DNA from: Candidatus Wukongarchaeum yapensis
Lineage (GTDB): Archaea > Asgardarchaeota > Wukongarchaeia > Wukongarchaeales > Wukongarchaeaceae
DNA: 6,981 bases
Assembly (NCBI GenBank): GCA_016840425.1
Contig: JAEOSI010000122.1
Span: 1-6,981, forward strand
Direction of reading: 5' to 3'
The translations under genes were made by a program, and so were the position numbers. This document shows, one piece after another, positions 1 through 6,981 of the stretch. Under the pieces are notes generated by a model. The model was not told where the DNA came from and made no database searches. It saw only the letters and a list, made by a program, of their open reading frames with translations. How positions within the stretch are numbered: the stretch's first letter is position 1; each line of letters begins with the position of its first letter.

Positions 1-1656
1 CGTATTTTGACTGAAATTCCCCGCTAGATCGAAAGTATATACGTTTGAAGGTTTTCCACGAATCCATTCTCCATTTTTTCTATGAACAATTTTAAGGACA
101 GCATCCATCATTATAGCGGACACGATTTCTATAGCGGATAGACTGGCAACAGTACATTTACTTGCAAAATCAGGACTTTCAGGAAAGCCTCTAACCCACC
201 TTAAATCCCTTTGATAACAACCAATACACGAATAATCCTGTTCGGATAACACTACCCTTACAGATCCTCTAGTTCCTTCAACTCCACCATTTAAAAAGGG
301 CTTTTCCGCCGCCAAGCTTATGGTTTGAAGCGTTCTTCTCGTGCTAAAATTATCAACACAAGTAGCTACTATATCAACATTTTGAATCATTTTTTCAACT
401 TTTCTCAAACTGGCCTCCAAATCAAACATCATCACCAGCCTGTTTGTTCCCAAGAGTATCGCTGGCATGTTTGCATTAGGAATCTCGAACATATCAGCTT
501 TTACCTCTATAAAAGGAAAATTCTCACCCACCCATTCTTTAACAGCTGTAACCTTAGATTTTCCCACATCGCCTAGCGTGTAAAGACTCTGCCTAAAAGT
601 GTTTTCTGCCTCCACCCTATCCCTGTCTACTACTTCAAGGCTCCCAATCCCGTGTAAACAAAGTAATCTTATGAGTTCACACCCAACAGTTCCTAACCCG
701 CAAACTAAAACCTTTGTTTCACTAAGTTTTTCCATATCATAGTTCATTTTTTTAATCCTGTCGAAAAGTTTTTCTTTCAGCGTTTCAGCTCCGATACTCA
801 TGATTGTATGACTTTTATCCCTATCTCCCTTTATGATTATGTTTTCTTGGGGGATTTTTTGGATTTTCACAGGCATGGTGGAGGCAAACATTTTTACCAA
901 ATAGTAATTGAAATCGATCCAGTTCTTTTCTTGTAAGACTTTACAGAATAAGAACTGCTTACTTCGGGTTTTGTTGTAGTAATTACCCATCAATATCTCT
1001 TCAAGGAAAGTCACATCTTTAATTTTAGAATAATGCCATAAACCCCAACTACTCTGAATCCCTTCCTTGTTCCCGTAGGACACAGGTATTAAGCCCTCAT
1101 CATCTTCTATTTCCTTGATTAAGCCCTTCTCCTCCCCTTTTCTTAAGAGCTCTAAAACCCTTCCTTCGAATGCGAAAAGTAAATTCTCATCCACACCTAG
1201 TATCTCATCCTTTCCAATCTCTTGAAATTTGGCGTTGATGGAGATACGAGGTTGGAAAAATGAAAGCTCTAAATTATCCCCCATAAGACAAGCTATACCA
1301 TAAATCTTAGGAAAGATTATAGGATTATCGGTTATAAGGAGACCTTCAACCCACTTTTCCATAATTACACTATCAATCCCCGAATAACTGCTTAGTCCGT
1401 GGGGGTGAGAGTGCCAATTTCCCAAAATAGAGAGCCCAGGATGGGCGCCTAAAAGTTCTGCATAAGTTGTTGGAGAAATCTTAACTATCCCAGGCGACTC
1501 TTCTGCTTTTAAATCCCGCAAGATCTTTTTTATGAAAACAGAATCTTCAGAAAAATTCCCTAAAAACCAGCCGCCGATCTCCCTGTCTCTTATATCTTTT
1601 ACAAGTTTTTCAAGTTCTAAATATGCTTCAGAACCAATCACTACCTTAAAAGTCAA
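1..1656 (-). CDS. JAB/JAMM metalloprotease - middle domain - ThiF/MoeB/E1-family activating enzyme fusion (C-terminus truncated by window edge, at least 552 aa)
   Basis: Hand translation gives an uninterrupted minus-strand frame from TTG at 1656 to position 1. An upstream in-frame TGA lies at 1704-1702 and an AGGGGA RBS at 1668-1663. N-terminus: MTFKVVIGSEAYLELEKLVKDIRDREIGGWFLG...ILGNWHSHPHGLSSYSGID, a complete JAMM motif (E26, H82-x-H84, x7-S92-x2-D95). C-terminal part: KVLVCGLGTVG (GxGxxG, G320-G325), VVDRDRVEAENTFRQSLY, DVGKSK, VDIVATCVDNFSTR, CIGC (C477/C480) and putative catalytic C501. Missing from the ORF track because no stop codon lies in the window. Confidence 0.92.
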   Translation of the reverse strand, partial: MTFKVVIGSEAYLELEKLVKDIRDREIGGWFLGNFSEDSVFIKKILRDLKAEESPGIVKISPTTYAELLGAHPGLSILGNWHSHPHGLSSYSGIDSVIMEKWVEGLLITDNPIIFPKIYGIACLMGDNLELSFFQPRISINAKFQEIGKDEILGVDENLLFAFEGRVLELLRKGEEKGLIKEIEDDEGLIPVSYGNKEGIQSSWGLWHYSKIKDVTFLEEILMGNYYNKTRSKQFLFCKVLQEKNWIDFNYYLVKMFASTMPVKIQKIPQENIIIKGDRDKSHTIMSIGAETLKEKLFDRIKKMNYDMEKLSETKVLVCGLGTVGCELIRLLCLHGIGSLEVVDRDRVEAENTFRQSLYTLGDVGKSKVTAVKEWVGENFPFIEVKADMFEIPNANMPAILLGTNRLVMMFDLEASLRKVEKMIQNVDIVATCVDNFSTRRTLQTISLAAEKPFLNGGVEGTRGSVRVVLSEQDYSCIGCYQRDLRWVRGFPESPDFASKCTVASLSAIEIVSAIMMDAVLKIVHRKNGEWIRGKPSNVYTFDLAGNFSQNT

Positions 1657-1751: not shown

Positions 1752-2369
1752 CTAGATTAGATGGAACTGCTCTTTTAACATAGTGACTATCATGCTTAAT
1801 GGATTTTCCGTATAACGAACCTGTTTCCATGCCCTGTTAAAATCCTCATCCTGGAAATGAATTCTTCCAGTAACAGTGTCAACACACTGATGATTTAGGG
1901 GAGGATGTATTATTACGCATGGAGGAACCGCTGGATAGCCTATAGAAGGCAAGATGAAAACCTTATACTTCTCCTCTTTTCCACCCCTTGTTTTTACACA
2001 ATTTTTAAAGACTCCTGCGCCTAGATTTTCAGGTATCAAAGCTTCCCAATCTCTATGATATTTTTCAATGTGTAAAAGAGCATGTTTTGCAAAAACCTGG
2101 AACACTGTCGACGGAGTTTCTAACACTGATCCGTAAGGTTGTTCAAAAGACCAACAAATAACGCTTCCTTCATCAATACTCTCACCAATCTTCATCTCAG
2201 GAGATAAGGTTCTTTTAAAAGTGCTTAAGATTATCGGATAGCCCTCGAGACTATACTTCTCGCGTAGAAGGTTTATAATTGTTTGAACACTTTCTTCTCC
2301 TGAAAAATAAACATCTTCATCTTGCCACCCTTGCTCAAAATTAAACAGTTTTACACCGATTTTGCCCAT
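1752..2369 (-). CDS. Ubiquitin-like (beta-grasp) domain fused to a UBC/E2-fold domain (205 aa)
   Basis: ORF track plus a GGTGA RBS at 2386-2382. Residues 1-80 follow the ubiquitin pattern: FSGEESVQTIINLLREKYSL resembles [20 protein letters not shown], and RTLSPEMKIGESIDEGSVICWSFEQPYG resembles [29 protein letters not shown]. Residues ~85-205 carry the UBC signature KYKVFILPSIGYPAVPPCVII-HPPLNHQCVDTVTGRIHF...W (YPxxPP, an HPN-like HQC, and GxI-H in place of GxI-C). The CDS is well supported; the domain calls are pattern-based. Confidence 0.75.
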   Translation of the reverse strand: MGKIGVKLFNFEQGWQDEDVYFSGEESVQTIINLLREKYSLEGYPIILSTFKRTLSPEMKIGESIDEGSVICWSFEQPYGSVLETPSTVFQVFAKHALLHIEKYHRDWEALIPENLGAGVFKNCVKTRGGKEEKYKVFILPSIGYPAVPPCVIIHPPLNHQCVDTVTGRIHFQDEDFNRAWKQVRYTENPLSMIVTMLKEQFHLI

Positions 2370-2402: not shown

Positions 2403-2612
2403 TCAAGAATTTTTTAATAAACTAAAACTCATAACTAAACTACTAAAAGCATACTTTTCGAAAAACAACACCAATCTCCTATTATCATTTAAAAAATCGT
2501 ATAACAAGTAAGTAAAAATATGAAAAACAGCAATTAAAAAGCCACAAAATTGAAAAATTTCCCCAGAAAAACGCCACTCTTCTAAAGTTAAAATGTAGAA
2601 ATAGATCAGCAC
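2403..2612 (-). CDS. Doubtful small hydrophobic ORF (69 aa, GTG start); may be non-coding upstream region
   Basis: ORF track only. Same strand as its neighbours and ends 34 nt before the Ubl-E2 start. It has no clear RBS, and the T-rich strand would give Phe/Leu-rich translations by chance. Confidence 0.2.
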   Translation of the reverse strand: MLIYFYILTLEEWRFSGEIFQFCGFLIAVFHIFTYLLYDFLNDNRRLVLFFEKYAFSSLVMSFSLLKNS

Positions 2613-4395: not shown

Positions 4396-4878
4396 TTAGG
4401 GCGCTTGACTTGTTCCTCCAAATTTTCTGAAGGCGTAGGGATTAAGCTTGCTTTCCAGCATATAATTTACGCCGAAATAGCTTACTAATATCAAAGCTAT
4501 ACCCGCATAAAGGAGGAGATTTGCATATTTTGGGTCATAAGCGTATTTAGTACTCTGATATAACAGGATAAAACCTATCCCTCCAACAATAAAAAGAATA
4601 CCTGCAACTAGTCCCTCAAGGAGAAACATTCTATCAAACTGAGGATACAAGAATATGGGACTACCCGTTGAAGTAAAAGCCAAGGCTGTAGGCTTTTCAA
4701 TAAGGATATAGATCCCGCCACTTAGAAGAAACCAGATCGTAACTAAAACTAAGACTGTCATCCTATTTTGTGTAGGCCTTGGCAACTCAAACTTAGGCTT
4801 TCTAAGTTCCAATTTCGGCCTCTTGATAAAGGGTATAATCCACTTAAAATGGGGCTTGGAAATTTTCAAAAAACCCAT
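4396..4878 (-). CDS. OST3/OST6-family oligosaccharyltransferase accessory subunit, OSTC/DC2-like (3 TM, no thioredoxin domain)
   Basis: PFIKRPKLELRKP...MTVLVLVTIWFLLSGGIYILIEKP...MFLLEGLVAGILFIVGGIGFILLYQS...LLYAGIALILVSYF...KL parallels the remembered human OSTC/DC2 sequence along its whole length. Likely start is ATG 4878 or TTG 4869 (GTGAGG upstream), rather than the track's GTG 4953. Confidence 0.85.
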   Translation of the reverse strand: MGFLKISKPHFKWIIPFIKRPKLELRKPKFELPRPTQNRMTVLVLVTIWFLLSGGIYILIEKPTALAFTSTGSPIFLYPQFDRMFLLEGLVAGILFIVGGIGFILLYQSTKYAYDPKYANLLLYAGIALILVSYFGVNYMLESKLNPYAFRKFGGTSQAP

Positions 4879-4981
4879 CCTCACAATGCTTGAATAATAA
4901 AGATAATTTTTTGCCCGTTTTATACTTTTATCGCCGTGCTTATAAATTATCACTTTTTATAAAAATCAAATCATATAAAAG

Positions 4982-5209: not shown

Positions 5210-6981
5210 ATGTCTTTTATAAAGAGTGGTTTAGGTTGGATCAAGGATAAAATCTCTCGTCCAAATGTTACTAGAAGCACGGTTCTTCATTACACGGTCT
5301 TATACCTTATCTTGCTTTTAGCTTTCCTATACAGGGTTTATCCTTATTTTAAATATGAACATATCCTTAAGGCTTACGACCCTTATTTCCAACTCCGTAT
5401 GGCGGAATACATAAACGAGAATGGTTTTGGCTCCTTCTTTGACTGGCATGATGAAAGGACGTGGTTTCCTGCAGGAACAGAATGGGGGAAAGCGGCTTAT
5501 CCAGGAACACCACTAGTCGCCGTGGCAATTTATAAGATCCTTAATTGGGTAGGATTTAGCATAAGTTTGTATACTGTTTGCTATTTTTTCCCCGCTATTT
5601 TTGGAACCTTAACAGTTTACATGATCTATAAACTCGGTACAGAACTGGCAAATGAAAAGGTTGGATTAATCGCGGCCTTCTTCTTATCCTTTAATCCTGC
5701 TTATGCTCAAAGATCAGTCGTAGGATTCTTCGATAACGAAGCTTTAGGAATATTCCTCATCATAACATCTTTTTACTTCTTCATAAAAAGCTTAAAGACT
5801 GGGTCGGTTACCAACGGCATCCTTGCAGGATTGTTCTTAGGATTCTTGGCTGCAAGTTGGGGTGCTTTCAGGTTTGCTTTAGATATGATTGCCATATATG
5901 CTTTTATTCTTCTCCTTCAAAAAAGATATTCAAACCGTTTACTCATATCTTACTCCCTAACAGTTTCCACAGCCTTACTCATGACTACGATAGTTCCAAG
6001 AACTGGCATGAGTATTGTTACGGGTGTTGAAGGAATTTTCCCCCTAGCAGTAATGGGGCTCCTGATTTTCTACGGATTGACAAACTACTTTTCAGACTTG
6101 ATGCCTAGGACTAGAAGTCCTTTTATGGAAAAATTGAGCGATTTATGGCTTCCAATCATTGTCGTCATTATTCCTTTATTTCTAGTTGCTCTATGGGCTT
6201 TTGGAGGCATCACTGGTATAAGCGGTAAGTTCCTAGGCGTACTATTACCAACAATAAGGGAGGGCACGCCCCTCATAAACTCAGTAAGTGAACACTTACC
6301 CCTTTCATGGGCCAACCTTTACTACTCCGTGGAAATACTGCTTTTCTTAGTGCCTGCAGGCGCTTATTTCCTGATGAGGAATCCAAGCGAAGAAAATATT
6401 TTTCTCCTAGTATTCGGTCTAACAACTATCTACTTTGCTTCTTCAATGGTGCGTTTAATCTTAATTTTTGCCCCTGCAGCATGTCTCATAGCCGCCCTAG
6501 CTATCGACAAAGTTTTGACACCCTACGCATTAGCCTTAAAAGAAAAACTAGCACTAAGCAGAAGAAAAGTAAGAATAAGCGCAATGATCGGAAAAGAACA
6601 AGCAGCAGTAGTCTACATATTCATAGGCATTCTCCTATCTCTAAACATGTGGCACGGCGTACAAGCAGTAGATGAACGATTAGGCCAACCCGAAATGGCA
6701 CCTACCATCGGAGACACAGTACTTGATGACTGGCAGCAGACTTTAGAATTTATGGATACTGCGCTTAATGAAAACACAGTAGTCCTATTTTGGTGGGATT
6801 ACGGCCACTGGGTGACGGCTCTAGGGAACGTTAGAACGCTTGCGGATGGGTCTACGATTAATAGTCTTCAGATTGGGCAGATTGGTCGTGCTTTGGTATT
6901 TAATGAGACGGAGTCTCTTAAGATTTTGTGGGCTTTTAGTGTGGATTATGTTTTGGTGAATTTTGCGGCGGCTGAGATGAA
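5210..6981 (+). CDS. aglB: STT3/AglB oligosaccharyltransferase catalytic subunit (3' truncated by window, at least 590 aa)
   Basis: Hand translation is open from ATG 5210 (GAGGGG RBS at 5198-5203) to the window end. Motifs: AYDPYF (D57, 5378), FFDNE (D175/E177, 5732-5740), SVSEH (6281-6295), MVRL, WWDYG (6791-6805) and DGSTINSLQI, with many hydrophobic TM segments. Confidence 0.96.
   Translation, partial: MSFIKSGLGWIKDKISRPNVTRSTVLHYTVLYLILLLAFLYRVYPYFKYEHILKAYDPYFQLRMAEYINENGFGSFFDWHDERTWFPAGTEWGKAAYPGTPLVAVAIYKILNWVGFSISLYTVCYFFPAIFGTLTVYMIYKLGTELANEKVGLIAAFFLSFNPAYAQRSVVGFFDNEALGIFLIITSFYFFIKSLKTGSVTNGILAGLFLGFLAASWGAFRFALDMIAIYAFILLLQKRYSNRLLISYSLTVSTALLMTTIVPRTGMSIVTGVEGIFPLAVMGLLIFYGLTNYFSDLMPRTRSPFMEKLSDLWLPIIVVIIPLFLVALWAFGGITGISGKFLGVLLPTIREGTPLINSVSEHLPLSWANLYYSVEILLFLVPAGAYFLMRNPSEENIFLLVFGLTTIYFASSMVRLILIFAPAACLIAALAIDKVLTPYALALKEKLALSRRKVRISAMIGKEQAAVVYIFIGILLSLNMWHGVQAVDERLGQPEMAPTIGDTVLDDWQQTLEFMDTALNENTVVLFWWDYGHWVTALGNVRTLADGSTINSLQIGQIGRALVFNETESLKILWAFSVDYVLVNFAAAEM

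Follow-up and report, generated by a model that had tools for sequence, protein, structure and literature searches.

A 6,981-nucleotide stretch of the Asgard archaeon Candidatus Wukongarchaeum yapensis (contig JAEOSI010000122.1), referred to here as the window, encodes on its reverse strand a 205-residue protein in which a ubiquitin-like (Ubl) domain is fused to a domain resembling the ubiquitin-conjugating enzymes (E2s). The frame of a second gene, encoding a JAB protease domain, a middle domain and the adenylation domain of a ubiquitin-activating enzyme (E1), begins 95 bp after it on the same strand (Table 1). E2s are defined by one cysteine at a fixed place, aided by the asparagine of an HPN motif. 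The initial annotation of this DNA had proposed that in the fused E2-like domain this active site is rearranged, HQC standing where HPN is expected and a histidine at the position of the catalytic cysteine, and had offered a relocated thioester cysteine, an inactive adaptor or a non-cysteine nucleophile as ways of reading it. The rearrangement is supported by our analysis and is a conserved trait of a family of 42 homologues, which most likely follows a modified form of E2 chemistry within a Ubl cascade particular to Asgard archaea. The frame and coordinates proposed for the gene and its motifs proved exact when the codons were checked. A sister genome (G001) carries a 93%-identical copy of the protein, for which searches of the Pfam, NCBIfam and PADLOC libraries returned no significant match.

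Table 1. Positions of the genes, domains and residues discussed. Positions are those of the window except in the last row, which lies on other contigs of the same genome.
Feature	Position	Strand	Basis or remark
Ubl + E2-like fusion gene, 205 aa	1752..2369	-	Open reading frame list; stop codon 1752-1754
Ubl β-grasp domain, residues 1-80	2130..2369	-	AlphaFold2 model compared with SUMO and ubiquitin
Minimal UBC-fold (E2-like) domain, residues 84-205	1755..2120	-	Model and structural matches
YPAVPP, residues 145-150 (Y-P-x-x-P-P hallmark of the UBC fold)	1920..1937	-	Conservation
H160 codon	1890-1892	-	Codon check
Q161 codon	1887-1889	-	Codon check
Cys162 codon TGT, proposed thioester site	1884..1886	-	Alignment with HPN Asn; conservation
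G168 codon	1866-1868	-	Codon check
His171 codon CAT, proposed helper residue	1857..1859	-	Alignment with canonical catalytic Cys
Trp181 codon, conserved Trp that follows the E2 active site	1827..1829	-	Alignment with canonical E2 and UEV
JAB protease + middle domain + E1 adenylation domain, 552 aa, truncated at the contig end	1..1656	-	Pfam Prok-JAB 1.2e-6, ThiF 1.1e-40
Cys501 codon, crossover loop of the E1 domain	154-156	-	
Hydrophobic open reading frame, 69 aa, between Zn-ribbon gene and Ubl-E2 gene	2403-2612	-	No family match
OST3/OST6-family membrane protein without thioredoxin domain	4396-4953	-	
STT3/AglB oligosaccharyltransferase	5210-6979	+	
Canonical ubiquitin set	C109 (L012:1489-3204) and C135 (L010:1183-1668)		UEV-Vps23 on C109, E2 on C135

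Fold of the fused domains

In the AlphaFold2 model of the whole protein (predicted local distance difference test score, pLDDT, 82.5), a linker of low confidence (residues 77-84) connects two domains. The first, residues 1-80, is a β-grasp that resembles SUMO, ubiquitin and other Ubls, with Z 11.8 and a root-mean-square deviation (rmsd) of 1.8 Å over 76 residues (model residues 2-80). Such matches filled the VIA-align list for the whole protein, so the E2-like domain was folded alone. Using an alignment of 31 sequences, residues 84-205 give a model of pLDDT 91.0 and predicted template modelling (pTM) score 0.85 that runs from helix 1 through a four-stranded antiparallel meander and a short active-site hairpin to two helices, with helices 3 and 4 of canonical E2s absent. 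The fold anticipated in the initial annotation is thus modelled with confidence. In the same model, assignment of secondary structure with DSSP gives a β-bridge between residues 80 and 86-87, and the base of the hairpin is flanked by model residues 79 (Cys162) and 88 (His171), an arrangement in which the two side chains would be neighbours.

Structural searches lead consistently to the same superfamily. The best Foldseek match of the E2-like domain is UFC1 (E 2e-4), followed by Ube2K, Mms2, TSG101 and Ubc9. VIA-align ranks canonical E2s (Z 9.6-9.4) alongside Atg3 (Z 9.4, rmsd 2.8 Å over 110 residues) and also finds VPS37A, Mms2, TSG101, RWD domains and the bacterial BubB and BilB (both Z 7.1). 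UBC-superfamily proteins make up all of the top 50 VIA-align matches, and the Foldseek matches likewise. UFC1 clusters also lead the ESM Atlas comparison, whether by shape (TM 0.69) or by language-model features, for which the score of 0.90 is borderline. Primary sequence places the family further off. The window protein scores 11.7-13.1 bits against UQ_con, the Pfam model of canonical E2s, below the gathering threshold of 27 bits; the best UQ_con E value among 31 family members is 0.0041, with a score far short of the cut-off, and the Pfam model of the ubiquitin E2 variants (UEV, PF05743) matches one of the 31 (E 0.018). When a family profile was compared with solved structures, the best sequence matches were UEVs of the Mms2/Uev1 type (E 1.2e-5 to 9e-5). 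By its modelled fold and its hallmark motifs the C-terminal domain belongs to the UBC superfamily.

A conserved cysteine at the asparagine position

Residue equivalences were established by alignment with the genome's own canonical E2 (contig C135, HPN...Cys), its own UEV-Vps23 (HPN...Ser) and two UEV-Vps23 proteins of other Asgard genomes. Cys162 takes the place of the HPN asparagine, His171 that of the catalytic cysteine and Trp181 that of the conserved tryptophan. Comparison with the genome's own E2 by hhalign puts Cys162 in the same register; with a probability of 5.8% this single template is weak, and useful for the register of Cys162 only. In most members of the family the cysteine and histidine are 8 residues apart, exactly the canonical spacing of asparagine and cysteine, and the window protein has one residue more.

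The family is rare and divergent. A word search returned one match, an exhaustive single-protein search eight representatives and a profile search 26 clusters; a six-frame profile search of 400 Asgard genomes in addition to the profile search was needed to reach the 42 distinct domains analysed here, which form 14 clusters at 60% identity and fall to a minimum pairwise identity of 17%. True members are present in 10 of the 400 genomes, namely in the window's own family (f1), in f18 and in all seven genomes of families f26-f28, which mostly hold two paralogues each. All homologues are Asgard, and the named ones come from Helarchaeota, Lokiarchaeota or Promethearchaeota records.

Across this set eight positions are invariant (42/42), among them Y145, P149, P150, P156, C162, W181 and N189. 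The column of Cys162 is the sole cysteine-rich column of the alignment; C124 and C151, which the initial annotation had listed for the same comparison, are not conserved. Position 171 is near-invariant, being histidine in 40 members and asparagine in two, and a cysteine at the canonical catalytic position is found in none of the 42 homologues. The residues before Cys162 are looser, position 160 being D in 24, N in 11, H in 6 and S in one, and position 161 being proline in 28, so that of the HQC triplet first remarked upon the cysteine alone characterises the family, whose motif reads [D/N/H]-P-C ... G-x-[L/I/V]-H. Asp164 is kept in 38 members and H96, in helix 1, in 40. Even the E2-like protein P0005, which has a 19-residue insertion in the active-site hairpin, keeps both the cysteine and the histidine. 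No homologue has the canonical G-x-I-C together with a variable residue at 162, and conservation across the 42 homologues rules out a one-off degenerate copy. A zinc site formed by C162 and H171 was likewise set aside, judging from the fold topology, the only other highly conserved possible ligands being H96 and D164.

Among the explanations first offered, the moved cysteine is favoured because C162 is the only invariant cysteine. The histidine could be imagined as the nucleophile itself, acting through an acyl-imidazole intermediate, as His171 aligns exactly with the catalytic cysteine and the bacterial Bub system shows that E2 folds can employ nucleophiles other than a thiol. However, the two members with asparagine at position 171 are the E1-adjacent paralogues of genomes G157 and G158, both within intact Ubl/JAB/E1 operons, and Cys162 never changes. 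A histidine nucleophile is therefore disfavoured, and we consider it very improbable indeed.

The Ubl, JAB and E1 partners

The E2-like domain is either fused to, or encoded directly after, a Ubl ending in Gly or Gly-Gly and a short tail. In the window protein the Ubl domain ends with the conserved Gly80, the probable processing site. Separate Ubl genes in relatives stop at GG+R, GG+TSSDE or GG+H (L023:5649-5972; L025:5694-6008; L067:4023-4331), and in the split paralogues of the Hel-like genomes a Ubl of 104-107 residues, ending in GG+R or GG+TSSDE, is followed directly by the E2-like gene. That stand-alone relatives stop at Gly-Gly and a tail implies that the Ubl-E2 fusion would be a precursor, cleaved after Gly80.

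Conservation of Cys162, His171 and the nearby Asp164 also brings to mind a hydrolytic dyad or triad, in which case the E2 fold would be a peptidase cutting the Ubl-E2 junction in cis or removing the Ubl from its targets. The fused paralogues of the Hel-like genomes, which lie far from any JAB gene, would agree with such a function. Nevertheless, the asparagine found in place of His171 in two members would disable a Cys-His protease, the split forms keep the same residues though they have no junction to cut, and the operon already encodes a JAB protease. We know of no UBC fold that acts as a peptidase, and this possibility seems to us improbable.

The JAB domain encoded in the window has an intact JAMM motif (E26, H82, H84, S92 and D95). 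The E1 (ThiF) domain spans residues 307-534 and has the zinc motif C477/C480 as well as a crossover-loop cysteine, Cys501; the full-length JAB-E1 copy of genome G001 (L027:2934-4913, reverse strand, with the start matched to the window gene) also has the second C-x-x-C. The region of ~190 residues between the JAB and E1 domains (~108-300) matches no Pfam family; relatives have it within a separate protein of 328-357 aa that also contains JAB. JAB and E1 genes adjoin the E2-like gene in five families (f1, f18 and the Hel-like f26-f28), as they do at the metagenomic locus L020. The order of the genes varies. At the P0002 locus (L018; 38% identical) the E2-like gene is followed by a JAB protein, a ThiF protein and a second JAB protein; at the P0005 locus (L020; 28% identical) by a 229-aa protein, a ThiF protein and a JAB protein; and in Hel-like genomes a stand-alone Ubl (GG+H) precedes the E2-like gene, which is followed by a JAB-containing protein of 357 aa and an E1 of 363 aa. 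Of the seven distinct partner E1s, six retain the crossover-loop cysteine. The E1 of one Hel-like genome (L067:7487-8578, genome G161) has an N-terminal stretch of its own, ~85 residues long, which resembles the Ubl of the system in having a similar helix motif but does not end in Gly-Gly; this stretch may be a Ubl-like domain incorporated in the E1.

The same genome also holds a separate canonical set comprising a ubiquitin of 77 aa with LGG at its end, a small RING protein, UEV-Vps23 and an E2 with HPN and Cys, and two further ThiF-family genes are found on contigs C63 and C232. The Ubl/E2-like/JAB/E1 set is therefore an additional, self-contained Ubl system of this genome.

A Ubl with a MoeB/ThiF-type E1 and a JAB protein is a common layout of prokaryotic sulfur carriers, and the components could accordingly be viewed as a sulfur relay of the ThiS/MoaD/SAMP type, Cys162 bringing a persulfide to the adenylated Ubl C-terminus as a rhodanese cysteine does elsewhere. 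In keeping with this, the best NCBIfam matches of the E1 are ThiF/MoeB models, all of them below their cut-offs, and in genome G001 a radical-SAM gene (L027:1881-2897, reverse strand) lies 36 bp after the JAB-E1 gene on the same strand. That neighbour is not present at the other loci examined (L018, L020 and L067), however, and the matches of the E1 among solved structures in the Protein Data Bank (PDB; E <= 1e-5) are led by the eukaryotic UBA1, UBA3 and UBA5, with Atg7 weaker (2e-8). We are not aware of any UBC fold demonstrated to carry a persulfide. We give the sulfur relay little credence.

A candidate E2 with exchanged positions and its counterparts

Taken together with the conservation of Cys162, the organisation of the operon leads us to favour, if only by a little, an active though non-canonical E2 whose thioester cysteine lies at the asparagine position, with a histidine or asparagine helper at the old cysteine position. 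In such a cascade the JAB domain of the neighbouring protein would cut the fusion after Gly80 and so free the Ubl; the E1 domain would adenylate Gly80, load the Ubl onto its crossover-loop Cys501, and pass it from there to Cys162 of the E2-like domain. His171, or the asparagine of the two relatives, would be a polar helper acting either as general base or in positioning the oxyanion or thioester. Compared with a canonical E2, nucleophile and helper would then have swapped places across the same short hairpin. Indeed, the asparagine at position 171 in two members recreates the Cys/Asn pair in mirror order.

Two studied systems bear on whether such an exchange is feasible. Because UFC1 is without the loop lying over the site in other E2s, its K108, which occupies the asparagine position and lines the active-site cleft, is ufmylated in cis from Cys116 (PMC12032130). 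The asparagine position is therefore within chemical reach of the acyl group in UFC1, and as the loop over the active site is absent from the Asgard family too, the analogy supports the view that a cysteine there would be geometrically feasible. In BubB an E2 fold works with a non-canonical nucleophile and a histidine (PMC11601596), and the Bub system supports, again by analogy, both the non-canonical chemistry and the JAB processing step proposed here by providing a precedent for each.

The E1 and E2-like domains were also modelled as a two-chain complex, which reaches an interaction prediction score from aligned errors (ipSAE) of 0.66, against 0.01 for the best control. This mark is reached by 58 of 80 solved complexes and by two of 110 mismatched pairs; at least 57% of contacts are shared between runs, and the pLDDT of the partners is at least 83. 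The docking model thus supports binding of the E2-like domain to its partner E1, although the score may in part stem from recall, by the predictor, of E1-E2 structures already solved. The initial annotation had looked to a complex model to tell which residue faces the E1 cysteine and the Ubl C-terminus. The model puts neither the E1 cysteine nor the Ubl tail next to C162 or H171, and so does not discriminate between the two.

Several observations weigh against an active enzyme. In the complex model the confident contacts link an E1 insertion with helix 1 and the YPxxPP loop on the E2-like side; neither the active-site loop nor the E1 cysteine takes part in them. The E1 at L020 (4756-5583) has Thr-Tyr where the crossover cysteine is expected, and no E1 or JAB gene is found near the Hel-like paralogues P0007 (fused), P0021 and P0028 (split). 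Absence of the canonical cysteine, seen in all 42 members, is the defining mark of the inactive UEV domains, and the UEVs are also the closest sequences of solved structure. The UEV domains of the Asgard endosomal sorting (ESCRT) machinery have histidine or asparagine at the cysteine position too, and UEV-Vps23 proteins of this kind were matched by the single-protein search in relatives. As a separate observation, the Thr-Tyr of the L020 E1 recalls the catalytic tyrosine of bacterial BubCD.

Alternatively, the domain may be a UEV-like pseudo-E2, a catalytically dead UBC fold with no role beyond binding of the Ubl, the E1 or a target. Cys162 and His171 would then be structural or binding residues, and any conjugation would be carried out by the E1 alone, as is established in archaea for SAMP and UbaA. 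This is the main rival of an active E2. Against it, pseudoenzymes normally let former active-site positions drift, whereas Cys162 is invariant over 14 divergent clusters. Asgard ESCRT UEVs, by contrast, vary at the cysteine position (H, N or S) while keeping HPN. The Cys/Asn pair restored by asparagine at position 171 looks catalytic, and the tight operon of a Ubl with Gly-Gly, a JAB protein and a cysteine-bearing E1 fits a full cascade. We regard a dead UBC fold as unlikely, yet as the alternative to be taken most seriously.

Comparison with known systems places the proposed E2 apart from each of them. Canonical E2s, such as that encoded on C135, share its core fold, Y-P-x-x-P-P, active-site hairpin and downstream tryptophan. 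Their key positions are likewise 8 residues apart, and the E2-like domain, too, is encoded beside an E1 with a crossover cysteine. They differ in having Asn...Cys where the family has Cys...His/Asn, in the histidine of HPN, which the family does not conserve, and in possessing helices 3 and 4. UEVs have the fold and the loss of the canonical cysteine in common with the E2-like domain (Mms2/Uev1, TSG101/Vps23 and Asgard UEV-Vps23), and some Asgard UEVs even have histidine at the cysteine position. Nonetheless, UEVs either keep HPN or let it drift, have no invariant cysteine to compare with Cys162, and are not encoded with an E1, JAB and Ubl of their own as the E2-like family is; the UEV-Vps23 of this genome is encoded elsewhere, on C109. 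Atg3 and Atg10 offer the 'P-C' motif to which the initial annotation had likened HQC. The cysteine of the Atg3 HPC motif occupies the canonical cysteine position, with Thr213 replacing the asparagine. By sequence alignment the likeness would be superficial, as the family cysteine aligns with the asparagine and a separate histidine stands at the cysteine position.

With a Ubl-E2 fusion ahead of a JAB-E1 fusion, the two-gene architecture of the window is identical to that of Type I Bub, although Asgard relatives beyond the window also encode the parts as separate genes. Type I Bub comprises BubAB (Ubl-E2), BubCD (JAB-E1) and BubE (DUF6527), and JAB cleavage after a conserved glycine has been demonstrated experimentally (PMC11601596). 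BubB is also a minimal E2, without C-terminal helices, and has a non-canonical nucleophile and a histidine, as does the Asgard domain with its candidate nucleophile. Other features differ. The nucleophile of BubB is a serine at the canonical position, with a histidine at +2 and an aspartate, and the Bub E1 is without a cysteine, uses tyrosine and proceeds by oxyester chemistry (PMC11601596); in contrast, the Asgard candidate is a cysteine at the asparagine position, and all but one of the distinct partner E1s have the crossover cysteine. DUF6527/BubE (PF20137) has no match at E <= 1 in the window's own genome, which is 92% complete, and no BubE gene was seen in the neighbourhoods examined. BubB itself (9eav_D) ranks only 48th among the structural matches, below eukaryote-type E2s, BubCD is not among the PDB matches of the E1 at E <= 1e-5, and PADLOC gives no match for the E2-like protein. 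Bub hosts are bacterial, whereas those of the E2-like family are Asgard archaea, in which the flanking genes are housekeeping-like. Given the missing DUF6527, the different nucleophile and its position, the retention of the E1 cysteine and the weaker match to BubB, the domain was not assigned to Bub.

UFC1 is the best Foldseek, Atlas and language-model match of the E2-like domain, a likeness that is structural only. It, too, has neither HPN nor the loop and helices that border the active site; the similarity of UBA5 to the window E1 extends over the whole adenylation domain, and the UFM1 system has a Ubl precursor with a short tail after the glycine, as the Asgard system does. However, UFC1 keeps its cysteine (Cys116) at the canonical position, with a lysine at the asparagine position and a TAK motif, where the E2-like family has His/Asn and Cys, respectively, and UFM1 is processed by the cysteine protease UfSP, compared with the predicted JAB metalloprotease of the Asgard system. 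The Pfam models of UFC1 (PF08694) and Ufm1 have no match in the window's own genome, nor does the UFC1 model match any family member. The absence of a Pfam match and the His/Asn at the canonical position rule out assignment to UFC1.

Literature searches found no description of an Asgard Ubl-E2-like family. We tentatively suggest, at a probability slightly short of even, that it is the first E2 family in which the catalytic cysteine and its polar helper are exchanged, and that it serves as the conjugating enzyme in an Asgard-specific Ubl system not described before. Eukaryote-like E1 and E2 sequences would there occur in a fused Ubl-E2/JAB-E1 layout of which bacterial Bub has been the only known example, and the system may be related to the lineage behind UFM1, UBA5 and UFC1. 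If this is correct, the UBC active site is more plastic than has been assumed. It would extend the findings on the Ser/His chemistry of BubB and the TAK motif of UFC1, and would offer a natural experiment on the role of the asparagine position, as oxyanion hole or as structural brace. Asgard archaea are the closest prokaryotic relatives of eukaryotes. Because the family is Asgard and the same genome separately encodes a canonical ubiquitin set, the pool out of which the Ubl systems of eukaryotes may have diversified would gain a second Ubl cascade, independent of the first. Being small (two genes in the window), the system should be easily reconstituted.

The other genes of the window encode homologues of STT3 and OST3/OST6, RadB, a UPF0147 protein and a Zn-ribbon protein. 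The short hydrophobic open reading frame upstream of the Ubl-E2 gene (Table 1) is probably spurious as a gene. The OST3/OST6-family protein adjoins the STT3/AglB oligosaccharyltransferase, a pairing that is eukaryote-like and typical of Asgard archaea.

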